Of a stretch of DNA of 64,000 bases, positions 1 through 41,585 are shown in pieces. This stretch comes from Candidatus Levyibacteriota bacterium (GTDB lineage Bacteria > Patescibacteriota > Microgenomatia > Levybacterales > UBA12049). Position numbers and translations under genes: made by a program. The stretch's first letter is position 1; the number at the start of each line of letters is the position of its first letter. The stretch is from the NCBI GenBank assembly GCA_003173895.1, contig PJMG01000012.1:35448-99447 (forward strand), given 5' to 3'. Under the pieces are notes generated by a model. It was given only the letters and a program-made list of their open reading frames with translations, was not told the origin of the DNA and searched no databases.

Positions 1-503
1 ATGAATTACTTACTGATGGAACTATAAGAATAGATGATGATGATTTTAGAATTTATTCCAGTAGTAATTTTATCTCAGAAGTACAAGCAGCACGAATAAA
101 AGGTGAATCTTTATCTCTTCCTCCTATAGTTATAATTAACGGAGACGCCGGAGATCCAAGTCTGGTAGAAAGTATTATAAATGAATGCTCCAAAGATTCC
201 TCTCTTCTTACTATAGCTAGAAATATAGGAGCATTCCCGTATGAACAAATTGCAGAAATGTGGAGTAAACAAATTACAAAAAAAAATGCTAACCAAAATC
301 CCAGTTTTTTGGCTTTTACAACTCATGTACCTGCTTATAGAGATATGCTTACTGCGCAATTAGACTCAATATTAAAACCTAATCAAATAAATATATTGAT
401 AAATGGGGAGTTATTATCTCATCCTCCTAATTTAATAAAAAGCGGTGGAGGCTGGACAGATCAGTATATTCATCTTATAGGAGATGCACGAACTTTTAAA
501 TAG
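1..503 (+). CDS. Hypothetical protein, 5'-truncated by window edge (frame 3, open from position 3 to TAG at 501-503)
   Basis: Frame 3 is open from the first base: ELLTDGTIRIDDDDFRIYSS...GDARTFK*. The ORF-track entry 258..503 is only the first internal Met. Balanced amino acid composition; no recognised domain. Confidence 0.5.
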   Translation, partial: ELLTDGTIRIDDDDFRIYSSSNFISEVQAARIKGESLSLPPIVIINGDAGDPSLVESIINECSKDSSLLTIARNIGAFPYEQIAEMWSKQITKKNANQNPSFLAFTTHVPAYRDMLTAQLDSILKPNQINILINGELLSHPPNLIKSGGGWTDQYIHLIGDARTFK

Positions 504-552
504 TATTCCAAATTTGAATTTGGTTTAAAAATAGAAATAAATTTTATTTAAC

Positions 553-5726: not shown

Positions 5727-6665
5727 TTATAAATTTACTGGTACGTAGTTTACATCTTCCACTACATTATCTATTAATAATTTCGTATCTGCGAAGCGAT
5801 CCTGACTTCCCATAACTATAATAATTATAGTATGCCCATCTTTATTAATAGCTGTTACTAAAACTTGGCCTGCATCTTCTGTGTAACCTGTTTTTATTCC
5901 AAAAACTCCTTTATATCCTAACAGTTCATTTAAACTGATTAGATCAAAACTAGCACTCTGATCGACAGTAGAAATAATTTTTTCTTTAGTTGAAACAATT
6001 TGTCTTAAAACTGGATTCTTAATAGCAAAACTAGAAAGTCTGAATAAATCAATCGGCGTAGTATAATCTCCATCATCTAAAAGTCCGACTGGATCAGAAT
6101 AATGTGTATTATAAAGATGAAGTGCTGAGGCTTTCATATTCATAGCGTTTATAAAAGCCTTTTGGCCTCCAGGATAATTATCAGCGATAGCTATAGCCGC
6201 GTCATTATCTGAAGGTAACATCATAGAATATAAAAGACTTTCAAAAGTTAACTGCTGATTAGGTAAAAATCCAGCGACTACAGGTGGAATATCAGATGAT
6301 TTAATAGTTAAAATTTGATTTAATTTAAAATAATTTAGACCAATAAGTGCGGTCATAATTTTAGTAGTAGATGCTGGTGAAAAATGAAGATTAACATTTT
6401 TACTAGCGATTATTTTTTTAGAATCAGCATCTGCGATGATAAAACTTTGCGCTGAAATATCAGGAATTTGTGAATTTTCAAGTTTGGGATAATAAACTAT
6501 TGTAGGTAAATTCACATTTAATTTTTGGGTCGAAGATTCTTTATAGATTATAAATAGTGTAATGTTAACGGCAACTAGAATAAAAAAAACTACCACTGAA
6601 ATAATAGCTAGTGGGAAATAAAAATTATTTTTCTGCTTTTGGATTAAGTTGAGAAAGTCTTTCAT
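5727..6665 (-). CDS. dacA: Serine-type D-Ala-D-Ala carboxypeptidase (peptidase S11, PBP5-like)
   Basis: N-terminal TM/signal segment. SxxK active site (PASTTKIMTAL), SxN motif (LPSDNDAA) and KTG motif (GIKTGYT) in canonical order. The ORF-track start overlaps the upstream gene by 41 nt; the true start may be downstream. Confidence 0.75.
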   Translation of the reverse strand: MKDFLNLIQKQKNNFYFPLAIISVVVFFILVAVNITLFIIYKESSTQKLNVNLPTIVYYPKLENSQIPDISAQSFIIADADSKKIIASKNVNLHFSPASTTKIMTALIGLNYFKLNQILTIKSSDIPPVVAGFLPNQQLTFESLLYSMMLPSDNDAAIAIADNYPGGQKAFINAMNMKASALHLYNTHYSDPVGLLDDGDYTTPIDLFRLSSFAIKNPVLRQIVSTKEKIISTVDQSASFDLISLNELLGYKGVFGIKTGYTEDAGQVLVTAINKDGHTIIIIVMGSQDRFADTKLLIDNVVEDVNYVPVNL

Positions 6666-8013
6666 CGATTCGTTCCATATCTCGAGGGAAAAGTACTGCT
6701 TTACGAATATTATCTAATTCTAAAATTTTCATGGTTAAACGTTCTAGTCCAAATGAGAATCCTCCTTCAGGTGGCATACCATATTTAAAAGCCATTAAAT
6801 ACATACCAAAGTTTTTAGGATTAACATTTCTTTGTTTCATAACTTCTAAAAGTTTTTCGTAATCATTAATTCTTTTACTCCCACTTAAAATTTCAGCACC
6901 TCTAAAGAGTAAGTCATAACTTAAACTGTACTCTGGATTTTCTGGATCCGGATAAGTATAAAAAGCTCTTTTTTTAGTAGGATAGTGAGTAATAGTTACG
7001 AAATCAGATTTATGTTCTTCGCGAGCCCAAGCACAAATTTCTTTTTCATCTTCAGGATTTAAATCCATTTCTTTACTTAAATCACGCCCAGTCCTTTTAG
7101 TTATTATTTCCTGAGCTTCTCTAAGTTTAAGTCGAGGAATAGAGTTTGGAATAAGTGGCATTTCTATATTTAATTTTTCAAAAATATTTTTATGTTTTTC
7201 TGTAACATTTTTTACGATAGATGATCCTACAAATTCAACTGCATCTAAAAGTTCTTCAAATTTTTCTACGAATGCTATTTCTACATCCATCATAGTCACT
7301 TCTGATAAGTGACGAGTGGTCACTGAAGGCTCTGCACGATAAGCTTTACTAATAGTAAAAACCCGCTCTAAAATTCCCACCATCATCTGCTTATATAGCT
7401 GTGGACTTTGAATCATATAGGCATGATGCCCATAATAATTAACCGAGAATACATCTGCGCCTCCTTCACTAGCTCCAGCTGCTATAGTCGGGACAAAAAT
7501 TTCTGTGGCATCTAATTTTTCAGCAGCATTTCTAAACTCTTCAGCTATAGATGCCTGTATTTTAAAAATATCTCTTTGGGTTTCGTGTTTTAATGTTAAA
7601 GACCTAAAATCAAGTAGAGTAGGCAATTCTAATTTTAAATCAATTCCTCCCATATCAAATGGAAGTGTTTCAGATTTACCAATAACTTCTATATCTTCTA
7701 TTTCTAATTCTACTTTTCCAGTAATAAGTTTAGGATTAACTGCATTTTCTGGTCGAGCATGTACGATCCCTTTTATATAAACCGCTTCTTCAGGTTTTAT
7801 ATTTTTAGCTTTTTCGAAGTTGTCATTTTTAGAGAAAATTACAGTTTGTATTAAAGCACTTCTATCTTCTATATCAAAAAATACTATTTTTCCGTGTTCT
7901 CTTTTAAGTCTTACCCACCCTTTTATCTCTACTTCCTGATCAATTTTTTCAACAGTATCTTTAATTAAAGTTCGCATAAATATAATTTTACCTTTAAAAT
8001 CTCTTCTTGACAA
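6625..8013 (-). CDS. Class IIb aspartyl/asparaginyl-tRNA synthetase (archaeal/compact type; AspRS vs AsnRS not resolved)
   Basis: N-terminal OB-fold anticodon-binding region. Class II motif 2 (FRAEPSVTTRHLSEV) and motif 3 (GGFSFGLERL). QSPQLYKQ signature common to AsnRS/AspRS2. Confidence 0.85.
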   Translation of the reverse strand: MSRRDFKGKIIFMRTLIKDTVEKIDQEVEIKGWVRLKREHGKIVFFDIEDRSALIQTVIFSKNDNFEKAKNIKPEEAVYIKGIVHARPENAVNPKLITGKVELEIEDIEVIGKSETLPFDMGGIDLKLELPTLLDFRSLTLKHETQRDIFKIQASIAEEFRNAAEKLDATEIFVPTIAAGASEGGADVFSVNYYGHHAYMIQSPQLYKQMMVGILERVFTISKAYRAEPSVTTRHLSEVTMMDVEIAFVEKFEELLDAVEFVGSSIVKNVTEKHKNIFEKLNIEMPLIPNSIPRLKLREAQEIITKRTGRDLSKEMDLNPEDEKEICAWAREEHKSDFVTITHYPTKKRAFYTYPDPENPEYSLSYDLLFRGAEILSGSKRINDYEKLLEVMKQRNVNPKNFGMYLMAFKYGMPPEGGFSFGLERLTMKILELDNIRKAVLFPRDMERIDERLSQLNPKAEK

Positions 8014-8096
8014 TAACTTATATGCTTGGTTAAAATAAATATAAATTTATGAGATTCTTTTCTATTGTAAATAAGCAGATTTACTTCCTTAATTAA

Positions 8097-8152
8097 GGGA
8101 GATTTGTATTATTTACATTTTCAATCTCCCCAGATAAAAGGGAGATTTTTTG
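8097..8152 (+). promoter_or_regulatory. Putative attenuator: alternative hairpins (antiterminator A:B vs terminator B:C + U-tract) directly upstream of ORF 8157
   Basis: GGGAGAT (8097-8103) ... ATCTCCC (8124-8130) ... GGGAGAT (8140-8146) followed by TTTTTTGT. The middle segment can pair with either flank. The B:C hairpin plus T-run has intrinsic-terminator geometry on the + strand, yet no + strand gene lies upstream. Confidence 0.4.
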
Positions 8153-8156
8153 TATT

Positions 8157-8402
8157 ATGAGCATAGAGCATTTATCCGATGAAGTATTGAAAGAAAAAGG
8201 AAGTCAATTGTTTAGACTTGAAAGAAGAATTGATAGTTCTCTAGAACAATTAAGGGATGAAAGTTATGAAGGATCTTTACGACATGCTTTAGACGTTGTG
8301 GATGGTATGAGATTAGCTCAAACAGGGCTTTATATAGAATTATACGACGATGGTCATAGTAATGAAGCAAACACTCTTATAAGAAGAGCAAGAGAAAGTT
8401 AA
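8157..8402 (+). CDS. Hypothetical small protein (81 aa)
   Basis: ORF immediately after the structured leader; charged/helical composition; no known motif. Confidence 0.4.
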   Translation: MSIEHLSDEVLKEKGSQLFRLERRIDSSLEQLRDESYEGSLRHALDVVDGMRLAQTGLYIELYDDGHSNEANTLIRRARES

Positions 8403-8481
8403 ATAAAAATGATTATAATTTATAATAAAACTTTAAATTCAGTCAAGCAGAATTATATTCTCTCTCTTTTTATTAGATAGA

Positions 8482-8540
8482 GAGACTGGTTTTTATTTTA
8501 AAATTCCAGTCTCCCAAATAAAAAGGGAGATTTTTTGTAT
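8482..8540 (+). promoter_or_regulatory. Second copy of terminator/antiterminator-like leader element
   Basis: GAGACTGG-(16 nt)-CCAGTCTCCC-aaataaaaa-GGGAGA-TTTTTTGTAT, then ACCCCAGATAAAAAT, which repeats the CCCCAGATAAAAG segment of the first element. Overlapping alternative stems. Upstream of ORF 8663. Confidence 0.35.
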
Positions 8541-8662
8541 ACCCCAGATAAAAATATTTGTAGTATACAATCCACCTATTATTGCTCTGTGAGCCGTGAA
8601 CGAATAGTTCCAAAAGGCGAACAGTAAAATCTGGTGGATAATTCAGAATTATTTTAAAGGAG

Positions 8663-8890
8663 GTGAAAATTATGGCAGAAATAAAACATCCGTGGAGAGA
8701 AGTATTACCAAAATGTGAAGGCTGTGCATTATTTAATTATTGTAAAGAACAAACAGGTATTGTAACTACTAAAAATGGTGAAATTCAAACTGGAAGACGA
8801 GGAAATCCAGAATGTACTCAATGGTTTAGTGCTGAAGGAAGTTTAAAATTAGATTATACTCAACCGGTAAAATTAGCTAATAATAAATAA
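8663..8890 (+). CDS. Small Cys-rich protein of unknown function (likely starts at ATG 8672; 72 aa)
   Basis: Strong RBS AAAGGAGG 8654-8661. Four Cys in C-x2-C ... C-x(n)-C arrangement (CEGCALFNYC ... PEC); possible metal-binding mini-protein. Confidence 0.45.
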   Translation: MKIMAEIKHPWREVLPKCEGCALFNYCKEQTGIVTTKNGEIQTGRRGNPECTQWFSAEGSLKLDYTQPVKLANNK

Positions 8891-8928
8891 CTACCTTTAA
8901 AGTAGCAACTTTATTTATTCATTATTAT

Positions 8929-10581
8929 TTATCGTTTTTTTACATCCTTTATCTTAAGTTGTATGCTTTCTCTTCCATTCCACTCATTTCTATCTATTAC
9001 AAAAACTATATCAATTAAATCCCCTAGTTTAATATTCTGAAACTTATCAACCATATTAAATGCAATCCCATCAATTCTGAATTCTGAATTCTGAATTCTG
9101 AATTTCAATTTCACATGCTTTCTATCTTTTCCAATTAAATTTATTGACTCAATCTTTACATTTTTACTTAAAAATACTGGTTCTGGGTTACTCATTCCAA
9201 AAGGAGAAAGTTTTTGAATTTCATCATAAAAATTTAGATCAACTATAGATAATGGAATTTCCAAATCAATATTTAAAATTCTTTCTAAATGTTCCTCTAA
9301 AATTTCTATTAACGCTAACTCTTCCATTTTTTTCTTTAATACCCCAATTTTTACTGTTTCTATAGTAAAACCAGCAGCCATGGGATGTCCTCCAGCATTT
9401 ACTAAAAACTCAGAATGTTTTCTAATAAATTCAATAATATTAATACCACTTATTGAACGAGCAGAAGCTTTACTAACTCCATCTTTTTTAGAAATTACTA
9501 TTGAGGGTCGATAAAAAGTCTCCACTAATCGTCCTGCTACTAAACCAATAATCCCTTCTTCAAAATCATCTTCGATAATTAAAATATTTTTAATTTTTCC
9601 TCGACTTTTTACTACTTCAATGGCGCGAAGTGTCGAAGCTTGCGTTAATAATTGACGCTCTCTATTAGTTTGACCTAAAGTAAGTGCTAAATTCTGTGCT
9701 CTTTTAATATTTTTAGTACAAAGTAAACGTAAACTATCCATTGCAGATTCCAATCGTCCCATGGCATTAAGACGAGGAGCTATCATATGTCCTACCTCAT
9801 AAATTCCTATTTTTTTAGGGTCAATTCCTGCTTCCTTATATAACATTTGTAAACCTACTCTTTTAGTATCTCTTAAATATTCCAAACCAATTTTTACAAT
9901 CGCTCTATTTGCATCTTTCAGTGGCACTAAGTCAGCGATAGTTCCTAAAGTTACTAAATCTAAAAATTTAGAAGGATCTTCACTTTTTTCTTTACCCTTT
10001 ACGCTTAATACTTTTGTAATTTCTTGCGCAAGCAAATAAGCCACTCCTGCACCACATAGTTTAGTCGTATGAACAGTACTAAAACTTGGAGGCAATTTTT
10101 CACCTCCGCCAGCTGGCGGAGTATGATGATCTGTAATTATTACATCTATTCCATTTTTATTACTAAATTCCACAGCTTCATGTGCCACAATTCCATTATC
10201 AACTGTAATAATTAAACCAATTTTTTCTTTTTCATTTTTATTTATTAAATTTTCTATACCCTTAATCGATAGACCATAACCTTCCTCTACTCTATGAGGA
10301 ATATATGGTTCCACATTCGCACCTAATCCAAATAAAGTTTCCCATAAGATAGCAGTTCCTGTAATTCCATCTACATCATAATCGCCATAAATTATAATTT
10401 TTTCTTTACTTTCAATTGCTTTTTTTATACGTTTTAAACTTTTTTGCAGCTTTTTTTTATCAATCTCAACTGAATCAATTGTTATATCCTCTATTTTGGG
10501 ATTTAAATAATTTTCAATTTCCTTTTTTGTTTTCATTCCTCTATTTTCTAAAAGAATATTTAAAATTTTTCCCATTGTCAT
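8929..10581 (-). CDS. recJ: Single-stranded-DNA-specific exonuclease RecJ
   Basis: DHH motifs (IIIYGDYDVDGITGTAIL; ITDHH) and DHHA1 region (GGHPMAAG). C-terminal OB-like extension. Start chosen at MTMGKIL (10581) rather than ORF-track 10737, to match typical RecJ N-termini and avoid overlap with the divergent NUDIX gene. Confidence 0.85.
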   Translation of the reverse strand: MTMGKILNILLENRGMKTKKEIENYLNPKIEDITIDSVEIDKKKLQKSLKRIKKAIESKEKIIIYGDYDVDGITGTAILWETLFGLGANVEPYIPHRVEEGYGLSIKGIENLINKNEKEKIGLIITVDNGIVAHEAVEFSNKNGIDVIITDHHTPPAGGGEKLPPSFSTVHTTKLCGAGVAYLLAQEITKVLSVKGKEKSEDPSKFLDLVTLGTIADLVPLKDANRAIVKIGLEYLRDTKRVGLQMLYKEAGIDPKKIGIYEVGHMIAPRLNAMGRLESAMDSLRLLCTKNIKRAQNLALTLGQTNRERQLLTQASTLRAIEVVKSRGKIKNILIIEDDFEEGIIGLVAGRLVETFYRPSIVISKKDGVSKASARSISGINIIEFIRKHSEFLVNAGGHPMAAGFTIETVKIGVLKKKMEELALIEILEEHLERILNIDLEIPLSIVDLNFYDEIQKLSPFGMSNPEPVFLSKNVKIESINLIGKDRKHVKLKFRIQNSEFRIDGIAFNMVDKFQNIKLGDLIDIVFVIDRNEWNGRESIQLKIKDVKKR

Positions 10582-10671
10582 CTCAAGCGAAGTCGAGAGA
10601 TCTCGTTCTTTAATCTTTAAATTATTAACTATTTTCCATTTCATATTTGATATAATTTTACCAGAAAATTT

Positions 10672-11145
10672 ATGAAAAGAGGGATTGATTACATAGGCGT
10701 AGGAGTAGGTGCTGCTATTTTTAATAATAAAGGACAATTATTAATTATGCTCCGTGGTAAAAAAGCTAAGAACGAAAGAGGCACATGGGAAATTCCTGGT
10801 GGCTCTGTAGAGTTTAATGAAACATTTGAACAAGCTCTAAAAAGAGAAGTAAAAGAAGAAATAGGAGTAGAAATAGAAATAATAGAACTTTTAGGAATTT
10901 GTGATCATATTATTCCTTCAGAAAAACAACACTGGGTAGCCCCTACATTTATTTGTAAAATTATAAAAGGTAAACCAAAAATAAAAGAAAAAGATAAATG
11001 CGAAAAGCTAGATTGGTTCACCTTAGAAGAAGCAGAAAAATTACCACTATCAATAATCACTAAATGGGATATAGAACAACTTAAAAAGAAATATATTTCC
11101 TTTTTCTCATCAATAAGTAAATCGAAAATACACCAAAAGGAATAA
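10672..11145 (+). CDS. NUDIX hydrolase
   Basis: Nudix box GGSVEFNETFEQALKREVKEEIGVEIE (G-x5-E-x7-REuxEExGu). Confidence 0.75.
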   Translation: MKRGIDYIGVGVGAAIFNNKGQLLIMLRGKKAKNERGTWEIPGGSVEFNETFEQALKREVKEEIGVEIEIIELLGICDHIIPSEKQHWVAPTFICKIIKGKPKIKEKDKCEKLDWFTLEEAEKLPLSIITKWDIEQLKKKYISFFSSISKSKIHQKE

Positions 11146-40680: not shown

Positions 40681-41585
40681 GGCGTTATACTACCTGCTGT
40701 TAAAAATATTATAAATACTAAAATACCAGCAAAAAATAAAATGTGATCTAAATTGTGTCCAGATAATCTATAAATTTTTTTTCGCTGGACTATAAATAGA
40801 TCTAGTGAAAAAACTATAATAAATAGAATTATAAGAATTTGTGCTAAATTTTTAGCGAAATTAAATCTATTAATAAGTGATGCTTCACTTACCATTTCAT
40901 TTACAGGATTATTACTAGCATAAGCATTATTAATCAAATTTTTAGAATTATTATTATTGGACAATGGTGCATTTCCTTTACCCCCAAACATTTCGACTAT
41001 TAAAACAGTGTTTTTTTCACCTGTTAAAGTTCCTTCTTTAACGGAAAATCCTATATCTTGATAGTCAGGAGATAAAATATTTTCTCTATGAGATGGGCTA
41101 TTCATCCAAGCATCCATCACATCACCAGGTGTAGTAAATCCGCGAGCTAAATTTTCACCAGCATATGTATAGTTATAATTTTCTTTTTGTATAAAATACC
41201 ATGGAGTTTTACCACTGGGAGATATATGTGCCCAATAATTTTCTGCGAACATATTATCTGCTTTTAAATCAGCAGCTTGAGCTAATTCAGCATTATAATT
41301 TAGAGGTTTTAATCCATTTTCTTCTCTCTGCTGATTAGTTAAAACTAAAAGTTGTTGGGTAGAAATATTTACAGACAAACCTAAAACTTTAGGATAATTA
41401 TTTTTAACATAGGATAATGAAATAGAAGCAATTAAAAATATTCCAGCAATTAAAAGTAAAATATCGTTGTGGAGAATTTTAGGTTTATGATTATTACTTT
41501 TATGAGGAATAAAAAAGTGTCTAAAAATATTACGATAACTTCTATTCATAGAAACAGTATAACGTTTATGAATAAATGGGTGCAA
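40677..41585 (-). CDS. Membrane-anchored CAP/SCP/PR-1 domain protein
   Basis: TM anchor then CAP motifs (HISPSGKTPWYF ... GENLARGF ... VMDAWMNSPSHRENIL). C-terminal TM. The real start is probably the internal Met (MNRSYR) near 41549. Confidence 0.65.
   Translation of the reverse strand: MHPFIHKRYTVSMNRSYRNIFRHFFIPHKSNNHKPKILHNDILLLIAGIFLIASISLSYVKNNYPKVLGLSVNISTQQLLVLTNQQREENGLKPLNYNAELAQAADLKADNMFAENYWAHISPSGKTPWYFIQKENYNYTYAGENLARGFTTPGDVMDAWMNSPSHRENILSPDYQDIGFSVKEGTLTGEKNTVLIVEMFGGKGNAPLSNNNNSKNLINNAYASNNPVNEMVSEASLINRFNFAKNLAQILIILFIIVFSLDLFIVQRKKIYRLSGHNLDHILFFAGILVFIIFLTAGSITP

Follow-up and report, generated by a model that had tools for sequence, protein, structure and literature searches.

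A conserved leader upstream of orphan small genes in the aspS-recJ gap of Levybacteria is probably a ribosome-dependent transcription attenuator

We analysed a 64,000-nt stretch of a Candidatus Levyibacteriota genome (contig PJMG01000012.1 of assembly GCA_003173895.1, positions 35,448 to 99,447 of the forward strand; hereafter the window), which has a G+C content of 29.8%. Its aspS and recJ genes are separated by a gap of 950 nt with two + strand open reading frames (ORFs), ORF81 and ORF72. Each ORF is preceded by a copy of a structured leader that we consider probably to be a ribosome-dependent (leader-peptide) transcription attenuator of the trp/erm type, present here in tandem. An earlier note on this DNA had suggested that a riboswitch or an attenuator controls the two small genes. 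The attenuator part of that suggestion is borne out by covarying helices and a short upstream ORF (uORF); the riboswitch part is not, as we found neither an Rfam match nor a conserved core. Our evidence is computational throughout, and the instances of the element are phylogenetically related. By aspartyl-tRNA synthetase (AspRS), the closest relatives are Levybacteria (Levyibacteriota) and other Microgenomates metagenome-assembled genomes of the Candidate Phyla Radiation (CPR, or Patescibacteria), with an identity of at most 72-74%. Because neither of our two sequence collections holds a nearer relative that would allow nucleotide-level covariation, we chose an approach based on motif-level covariance models (CMs). 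A Logan contig (run SRR490139) matches window positions 7751-9098 identically.

The window contains two alternative pairings for the same segment, as the earlier note had pointed out. ATCTCCC (8124-8130) can pair with either of two GGGAGAT segments, one at 8097-8103 and one at 8140-8146; T6 (8146-8151) follows the latter. In all, GGGAGAT occurs three times, at 8097, 8140 and 8525. A 44-nt direct repeat (8112-8155 versus 8497-8540, 82% identity) carries the hairpin and U6, and each of its copies has an upstream segment able to pair with the 5' arm of the hairpin. The 18-mer AAGGGAGATTTTTTGTAT occurs exactly twice in the 64 kb, compared to 0.41 occurrences expected at up to three mismatches, and none of 100 shuffles reaches the observed count. 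CCCCAGATAAAA is also found twice, at 8128 and 8542. Folding energies lie below those of shuffled sequences (z = -3.1 for 8040-8165 and z = -6.0 for 8400-8675), and the duplex of segments 2' and 3' in copy 2 reaches -14.4 kcal/mol (p = 0.016 versus shuffles). In a strict scan of the whole window for a perfect hairpin with a T-rich tail, only four distinct sites were found, two of which are the terminators described here (Table 1). Four such canonical intrinsic terminators (perfect stem, at least three GC pairs, T-rich tail) compare with 3-9 in shuffles of the 64 kb, and most genes of the window seem to lack them. Since the count does not exceed that of shuffles, terminators 1 and 2 are not part of a genome-wide terminator habit.

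Table 1. Features of the aspS-recJ region, in window coordinates; uORFs, segments and terminators are predicted.
Feature	Position	Strand	Description
aspS	6625-7977	-	Archaeal/nondiscriminating (ND)-type AspRS, 450 aa; conserved neighbour anchoring the element
Leader promoter	8007-8036	+	-35 TTGACA (8007-8012), 18-nt spacer, -10 TAAAAT (8031-8036); 11 of 12 consensus matches
uORF1	8049-8096	+	15 codons, MRFFSIVNKQIYFLN; ATG 12 nt past the -10 (near-leaderless); TAA (8094-8096) abuts segment 2
P1 hairpin (segment 1 : segment 2)	8066-8117	+	From the minimum free energy (MFE) fold; helices covary in the CM alignment
P1 core	8084-8090 / 8095-8101	+	CTTCCTT with AAGGGAG; 5' arm is uORF1 coding sequence
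Segment 2	8097-8104	+	GGGAGATT; pairs with segment 1 or with segment 3 (antiterminator)
Intrinsic terminator 1	8123-8151	+	Segment 3 AATCTCCC (8123-8130), 9-nt loop, segment 4 GGGAGATT (8140-8147), U-tract 8146-8151
ORF81	8157-8402	+	81-aa acidic orphan, three helices predicted; putative first regulated gene; codon-usage log-likelihood ratio (LLR) 0.446
uORF2	8409-8480	+	23 codons, MIIIYNKTLNSVKQNYILSLFIR; ATG 6 nt past the ORF81 stop; TAG (8478-8480) abuts segment 2'
Attenuator copy 2	8459-8536	+	Segment 1' TCTCTCT (8459-8467), segment 2' (A)GAGAGACTGG (8479-8489)
Attenuator copy 2, 3' half		+	Segment 3' CCAGTCTCCC (8506-8515), segment 4' GGGAGATT (8525-8532), U-tract 8531-8536
Small hairpin GTATAC...GTATAC	8537-8568	+	Holds a degenerate third copy of CCCCAGATAAAA
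Rod-like structured RNA	8570-8639	+	Five short helices, tandem G.A, GAAUA loop
Shine-Dalgarno (SD) sequence of ORF72	8658-8665	+	AGGAGGTG; strong; 6 nt before ATG 8672
ORF72	ATG 8672 to stop at 8890	+	72-aa orphan; four Cys (C15, C18, C26, C50); LLR 0.596
recJ	8929 to ~10650	-	Convergent with the putatively regulated genes; upper end approximate

Comparison with relatives places this arrangement in a common plan. About 35 relatives have recJ and aspS on one strand, with recJ upstream and 16-1400 nt between the two; this gap usually contains one or two opposite-strand ORFs, mostly unrelated across genomes. A scan of these gaps for a hairpin plus T-run showed a CTCCC-loop-GGGAG-T6-9 hairpin just before the first opposite-strand ORF in many relatives. 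The plan they have in common consists of a TTGACA-17/18-TAnnAT promoter (present in all 22 relatives examined), a short ORF, P1, the terminator segments and the U-tract. Across relatives, the 3' arm of P1 (segment 2, ...GGGAGAUUg) can pair with the 5' arm of the terminator (segment 3, cAAUCUCCC), and past the U-tract most relatives have GGRR, an A-rich spacer and the ATG of the first gene. In each of the 24 copies, a terminator hairpin (median -11 kcal/mol) runs into an unbroken U5-U9 tract. The MFE structure is P1 plus terminator for most genomes and the antiterminator for two. The loop and inner stem of P1 vary freely in length and sequence across the copies, with no conserved unpaired core found. 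The remark in the earlier note that nothing is transcribed into the element does not hold, because a conserved + strand promoter, TTGACA-18-TAAAAT, lies 40 nt upstream of the leader and would bring transcription into it.

A covariance model seeded with eight relatives, leaving the window out (CM R1), matches the window at 8062-8155 (32.6 bits, E 5e-4) and again at 8440-8540 (29.6 bits, E 2.5e-3). Because a model from relatives alone detects it, the element before ORF72, which had previously been noted as related to the first and which shares the 44-nt repeat with it, is a true second copy. With a seed of 20 sequences (CM R2), there are 23 matches at E<0.01 in 0.97 Mb, all in the gap upstream of aspS and on the strand divergent from aspS. 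A further 0.43 Mb added only two metagenome loci at this threshold, with the same score as one of the relatives (L026) and in the same gap. Over the 1.4 Mb scanned in total, no match at E<0.01 falls in a non-Levybacteria locus. One weaker match in the window itself (41159-41248, E 0.13) was rejected, as it appears to be in coding sequence and has no terminator.

Both of the alternative folds show covariation. Paired cells make up 88.8% of the OFF fold (P1 plus terminator) versus 74.0% in shuffled alignments and at most 67% in slid controls; 14 of 18 pairs have double-sided changes, and the covariation score is 0.508 versus 0.256, values that none of 500 shuffles reaches. The ON helix (segments 2:3) did not pass a fixed-column test when the OFF-state alignment was used, since genomes are out of register with one another by one column or a bulge, and we therefore adopted duplex-energy tests and an ON-state model. 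In the ON-state model, 76.5% of fixed-column cells are paired versus 68.6%, with double changes in 9 of 11 pairs (0/500 shuffles); bulges and shifts of register weaken this comparison. In 19 of 20 instances, segment 3 forms a more stable duplex with the segment-2 region than dinucleotide shuffles do (Fisher combined p = 6e-22), and the 2:3 partner from the same genome gives -15.1 kcal/mol compared to -10.05 for partners from other genomes (0/20000 permutations). This pairing runs into flanks that vary by genome, such as ACGCGAAC with GUUCGCGU, CCAAAUC with GAUUUGG, and CCAGUC with GACUGG in window copy 2, which argues that the 2:3 covariation is real. The mutually exclusive antiterminator/terminator pair proposed upstream of the small genes thus shows conservation and covariation in more than 20 genomes, and the check proposed along with it, on homologous intergenic regions, finds the P1, antiterminator and terminator helices all covarying.

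In all 20 aligned instances there is a uORF of 15-23 codons, starting mostly with ATG, that overlaps segment 1 and whose stop codon abuts segment 2; its frame is open for at least 20 codons in 20/20. The start lies 3-28 nt past the -10 in the 18 instances for which a promoter was found, and 8-14 nt past it in 12, so the predicted 5' untranslated region would be roughly 0-7 nt. TAG, TAA and TGA are all used as the stop, with a sense codon at that spot in none of the 20 instances, which points to a constraint on the stop codon rather than to an SD-like RNA motif. Asp and Glu are under-represented about 10-fold in the encoded peptides, and Phe, Arg, His, Cys and Asn are over-represented (Asn 1.55-fold); the peptides are not conserved beyond the constraint that RNA pairing imposes. 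Promoter, uORF, three covarying helices, terminator, conservation and locus specificity are in this sense computed properties of the element.

These properties suggest how the leader might work, in a scheme that takes translation of the uORF, termination at the hairpin and the signal as inferred. Transcription from the sigma-70-type promoter would give an mRNA with the ATG of uORF1 within its first few nucleotides. With no ribosome on the uORF, its coding sequence would pair with segment 2 (P1), the 3:4 hairpin and U6 would form, and RNA polymerase would terminate. A ribosome at the stop codon would cover the abutting segment 2 with its footprint, and the terminator would form again. However, a ribosome that stalls or slows midway along the uORF would melt P1 and leave segment 2 free for the 2:3 antiterminator, allowing read-through into ORF81. 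Because a second, diverged attenuator copy follows ORF81 and would gate read-through towards ORF72, the two orphans may be under serial control. uORF2 is probably translated by coupling or re-initiation, because its start is only 6 nt past the ORF81 stop. Constrained folds of both window copies follow the same course: the RNA folds into P1 plus terminator when unmasked (-28.9 and -32.1 kcal/mol), forms the 2:3 antiterminator and loses the terminator when masked through segment 1, as by a stalled ribosome, and regains the terminator when the mask covers the footprint of a ribosome at the stop codon.

Several points weigh against this interpretation. uORF1 has no SD, and its predicted translation would need near-leaderless initiation, which is not known from CPR bacteria. 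Frame +1 is also fairly open (at least 14 codons in 13/20), owing to the pyrimidine-rich 5' arm. Across the 20 instances we found no regulatory codon run common to the uORFs, NNN being present in two relatives only. Classical amino-acid logic is likewise not evident, since codons cognate to the product of a regulated operon were not found, although such codons define only the amino-acid subclass of attenuators and not the stall-responsive one. The regulated genes would be non-homologous orphans with no assigned function, an uncommon cargo for attenuators. Apart from the two in the element, canonical intrinsic terminators are rare in the window, so the predicted termination at these two may not be efficient. 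Finally, CM alignments are fitted to, and hence lean towards, the structures later counted on them. Composition of the uORFs, with no common codon run, leaves a specific amino-acid signal unsupported; the signal is most likely a general stalling or slowing of ribosomes, caused by starvation or translation inhibitors, rather than one amino acid.

The same observations bear on what else the element could be. It might be constitutive only, a plain terminator/insulator or 5' stabiliser for divergent transcription of the aspS region, with the complementarity and the small ORF as by-products of purine/pyrimidine tracts in AT-rich DNA. Polypurine and polypyrimidine segments (GGGAG, CTCCC, TCTCTC) do pair promiscuously, the two window leaders show no significant alignment outside the 44-nt repeat (p = 0.12), and frame +1 is often open as well. 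We nevertheless regard this as quite unlikely, given that the 2:3 pairing reaches variable flanks and covaries genome by genome, that the stop abuts segment 2 in every aligned instance while all three stop codons are in use, and that the start codon is kept at a fixed short distance from the -10. We also give little credence to a metabolite riboswitch or a protein- or tRNA-mediated (T-box-like) antiterminator in which P1 or a loop would be the sensor and the uORF irrelevant. The terminator/antiterminator architecture, the highly structured leader, the SD-like GGGAG or GGA motifs that could bind a protein, and the adjoining aminoacyl-tRNA synthetase gene would all fit such a device. However, the Rfam/Infernal search that had been proposed for the leader region matched no family: cmscan at the gathering threshold and at E<=10 returned nothing relevant at 7900-9000 and hence no metabolite-riboswitch aptamer. 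The T-box model RF00230 has no match in the window, and the element diverges from aspS, which speaks against a T-box; the controlled genes would be the divergent ones instead. A riboswitch would also leave the conserved start and stop of the uORF unexplained. With no Rfam match, no conserved unpaired core and a freely varying P1 loop, the sensor is almost certainly a translated leader peptide and not a ligand-binding aptamer.

An alternative closer to our scheme is translational attenuation of the erm/cat type, in which GGGAG of segment 4 would be the downstream SD and the 3:4 hairpin would mainly block translation, perhaps besides termination. GGGAG (8140-8144), 12 nt before the ATG, is indeed the only candidate SD of ORF81, and mycobacterial leaderless uORF attenuators act in this way (bioRxiv 10.1101/834739). 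Yet the U5-U9 tract follows the hairpin in 24/24 copies, most relatives have their own GGRR SD past it, and ORF72, 135 nt past copy 2, has a strong SD of its own; we consider translational attenuation improbable as the main mode. Because of the U-tract in all copies and the relatives' own SDs after it, the output of the element is predicted to be transcription termination, with possible extra SD masking for ORF81. Alternatively, the conserved product could be the short terminated leader itself, acting in trans as a small RNA of ~105 nt and/or through its peptide, like rnTrpL/peTrpL, with the downstream ORFs as incidental, fast-evolving read-through cargo. The leader is conserved and the downstream genes are not, and trans-acting attenuator RNAs and peptides have precedent (PMC6614838, PMC7298713). 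Against this, the peptides are not conserved beyond the pairing constraint, the downstream ORFs show gene-like codon usage and ribosome-binding sites, and no target is known. Such a role is very improbable as the sole explanation, and it is compatible with, not exclusive of, ribosome-dependent attenuation.

The proposed attenuator combines features of known systems. Like the classical ribosome-mediated amino-acid attenuators trpL, pheL, hisL, leuL and thrL (PMC1183508, PMC3082878), it has a leader ORF over segment 1, a stop beside segment 2, exclusive helices 1:2, 2:3 and 3:4, and an intrinsic terminator (3:4) with a U-tract immediately before the first structural gene. Unlike them, it has no codon run for a single amino acid, its uORF is near-leaderless with no SD, its promoter has a palindromic -35 in common with aspS, and copies stand in tandem in this genome. 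Its cargo also consists of orphan small proteins instead of biosynthetic enzymes. CPR bacteria largely lack amino-acid biosynthetic pathways. The stall- or antibiotic-responsive attenuators of bmrB-bmrCD (PMC4191407), mef/mel (PMC4335068), ermB (PMC8274638) and tlrB/yxjB (PMC6851288) likewise have a short uORF with no amino-acid runs. In these, stalling flips the terminator to the antiterminator, as predicted here, and the translation status that they sense is the likeliest signal in our case. However, they control resistance genes (ABC transporters, rRNA methylases), whereas the Levybacteria cargo has no recognisable function, and no known arrest motif is common to the Levybacteria uORFs. Mycobacterial polycysteine uORF attenuators (bioRxiv 10.1101/834739) resemble the element in having a (near-)leaderless sensory uORF as the first cistron and in that ribosome position remodels the downstream RNA. 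They sense Cys through Cys runs and act on translation by sequestering the ribosome-binding site, whereas the Levybacteria element has no Cys run and ends in a canonical terminator. Rfam 15 does not contain the element. Nothing relevant came up in full-text searches that combined CPR, Patescibacteria, Levybacteria or Microgenomates with attenuation, riboswitches or terminators, and a 2024 review describes regulation in Patescibacteria/CPR as virtually unknown (PMC11665869).

Both predicted products look like real proteins of no known family. Codon-usage LLRs, trained on 43 long ORFs of the window, equal or exceed those of chunks of real genes (0.446 +/- 0.143; spurious ORFs, -0.01), and the remaining five frames score strongly negative; by this measure ORF81 and ORF72 look coding. 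A word-indexed search of 5.8 billion clustered proteins returned only the queries. Full HMMER of ORF72 against 1.84 billion (1.84e9) representatives returned itself and one other protein, P0003, which we rejected as a spurious tandem-repeat artefact. Among 544 ORFs from the syntenic slot of relatives, phmmer found no match to ORF81 or ORF72; the search for homologues of the 72-aa Cys protein thus came back empty, and the small ORFs are not conserved in the slot. Pfam and NCBIfam gave only noise for the window ORFs. The AlphaFold2 (AF2) model of ORF72 has a pLDDT of 49 and is unusable; that of ORF81 (pLDDT 70) is a generic three-helix model with no fold match in the PDB. ORF72 does have the strong ribosome-binding site previously described for it, AGGAGGTG, 6 nt from its ATG. 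The idea that ORF72 is a precursor of a ribosomally synthesised and post-translationally modified peptide (RiPP) or a metal-binding peptide found no support: it has no homologues, its neighbours are aspS and recJ with no maturase among them, Pfam and NCBIfam gave no metal-binding domain match, and the structural model is of low confidence.

Between copy 2 and ORF72 lies a second RNA structure. The earlier note had grouped a GC-richer 80-nt stretch with TCCACC...GGTGGA ends with the second leader. The hairpin exists (8571-8576 / 8633-8638, -24.8 kcal/mol); however, it is not part of the attenuator, and comparison identifies the rod as a separate, conserved structured RNA. It has one homologue only, at 404-527(-) in L038, a locus from another Levybacterium (nhmmer E 2.8e-4). 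The two copies have a consensus of 21 base pairs, all of them intact and six of them altered on both sides in a compensatory way. Upstream of the rod, the small GTATAC hairpin is by eye compensatory in L038 (ATGCAC...GTGCAT) and is absent from the RNAalifold consensus. In L038, the rod sits between the terminator of a SAM-I/IV-type (S-adenosylmethionine) aptamer and the metK ATG (404-700, - strand), and the 3' arm of its closing helix, AAGGAGGAU, is the metK SD. The aptamer matches RF01725 at 37.7 bits (E 1.4e-4), under the gathering score of 41.1. This position directly before metK, with the SD held in the closing helix, resembles SD-sequestering metK-leader riboswitches (SAM-III/SMK, SAM-VI, tandem SAM). 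Unlike these, the window rod has no SD and precedes an unrelated orphan gene, and neither copy matches an Rfam family, with the SAM-I/IV, II, III, V, VI and SAM/SAH (S-adenosylhomocysteine) models all unmatched. The rod was not found in the remaining 1.4 Mb of collected loci, and a general role as a metK leader element is unsupported, as it is absent upstream of metK in three other relatives. Two known instances are too few to infer a ligand; the rod could be a second regulatory RNA, a processing/stability element or a mobile palindrome.

A pattern search also gave, at 920-1030 of L165 (viral contig IMGVR_UViG_3300007126_000115), a hairpin in which a 10-bp helix closes the same core, GAGCCG..CGAAUAGU..AAGGCGA. 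It lies ~60 nt past the 3' end of a transposase gene that we assigned by eye, from its translation, to the IS110 family. By a rough estimate, about ten chance matches to the pattern are expected in that collection, and the hairpin may be one of them or a palindrome of the insertion sequence (IS) or repetitive extragenic palindromic (REP) type. A match in a second viral contig (L166) was rejected as chance, in seemingly GC-rich coding sequence. In the window, a 30-codon ORF with a TTG start that overlaps the rod (ORF30, 8535-8627) was rejected as a gene (LLR -0.08). It begins within the U-tract of terminator 2, at the place of the first gene in relatives. Because of the degenerate third CCCCAGATAAAA copy there, the region looks like a relic of the duplication that made copy 2.

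Upstream of the leader, the two divergent promoters are interlocked, with the leader -35 overlapping the -35 of the aspS promoter (TTGTCA, 8013-8008). The aspS -10 TAAAAT is at 7990-7985, followed by 7 nt and the ATG at 7977, and aspS appears to be leaderless. The -35 palindrome CTTGACAAG recurs in this back-to-back layout in most relatives, which suggests that RNA polymerase binding at the aspS and leader promoters is mutually exclusive. An exact 10-nt direct repeat, TACCTTTAAA, flanks the whole cassette at 7989-7998 and 8892-8901, just inside the aspS promoter and just past the ORF72 stop. It is probably not a target-site duplication, because about two such repeats per kb are expected by chance at this AT content. 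On the other side, the upper recJ coordinate presumes a start at the internal Met of MKWKIV, inside a longer ORF (8929-10737). In the 3' part of recJ, the heptamer AATTCTG occurs four times in tandem (~9073-9100), in frame, encoding ...RIQNSEFRI.... A tRNA gene at 1119-1189 is the sole Rfam match in the window at the gathering threshold.

Across the collected loci (L002-L045, L082-L139), the recJ-aspS gap is a variable cargo slot with one to three ORFs where occupied; in three relatives it is empty (16-64 nt). The ORFs belong to several small unrelated families that are reshuffled across genomes, none with a Pfam domain, and Pfam found no domains in ten cargo proteins. One family, with the motif GAWRP...IPxRLYG, occurs in four loci, and the same motif was seen by eye in the first ORF of a fifth. 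A likeness of ORF72 to this family (GAWR...IPxRxYG) was rejected at a hidden Markov model (HMM) score of -1.4.

A bolder proposal, which we hold to be unlikely, is that the near-leaderless uORF attenuator is a lineage-wide translation-stress sensor of Levybacteria, hard-wired to the aspS promoter through the palindromic -35, that controls a hypervariable slot in which small proteins evolve fast or are newly born, and that the rod, with its homologue in a metK leader, is a new class of cis-regulatory RNA or riboswitch. If so, ORF72 would be doubly gated, by ribosome stalling and by a second signal. Taken together, the observations describe a concrete cis-regulatory device with three covarying helices, conserved in an ultrasmall CPR lineage with no cultured member, and mark a locus that is probably responsive to translational stress. 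The rod hairpin adds a candidate new regulatory RNA. A conserved leader with non-conserved cargo makes a useful case for the origin and turnover of orphan genes, and emerging CPR genetics could use the attenuator as a native inducible expression module. If the proposed mechanism holds, these reduced cells would use transcription-translation coupling, near-leaderless initiation and intrinsic termination.

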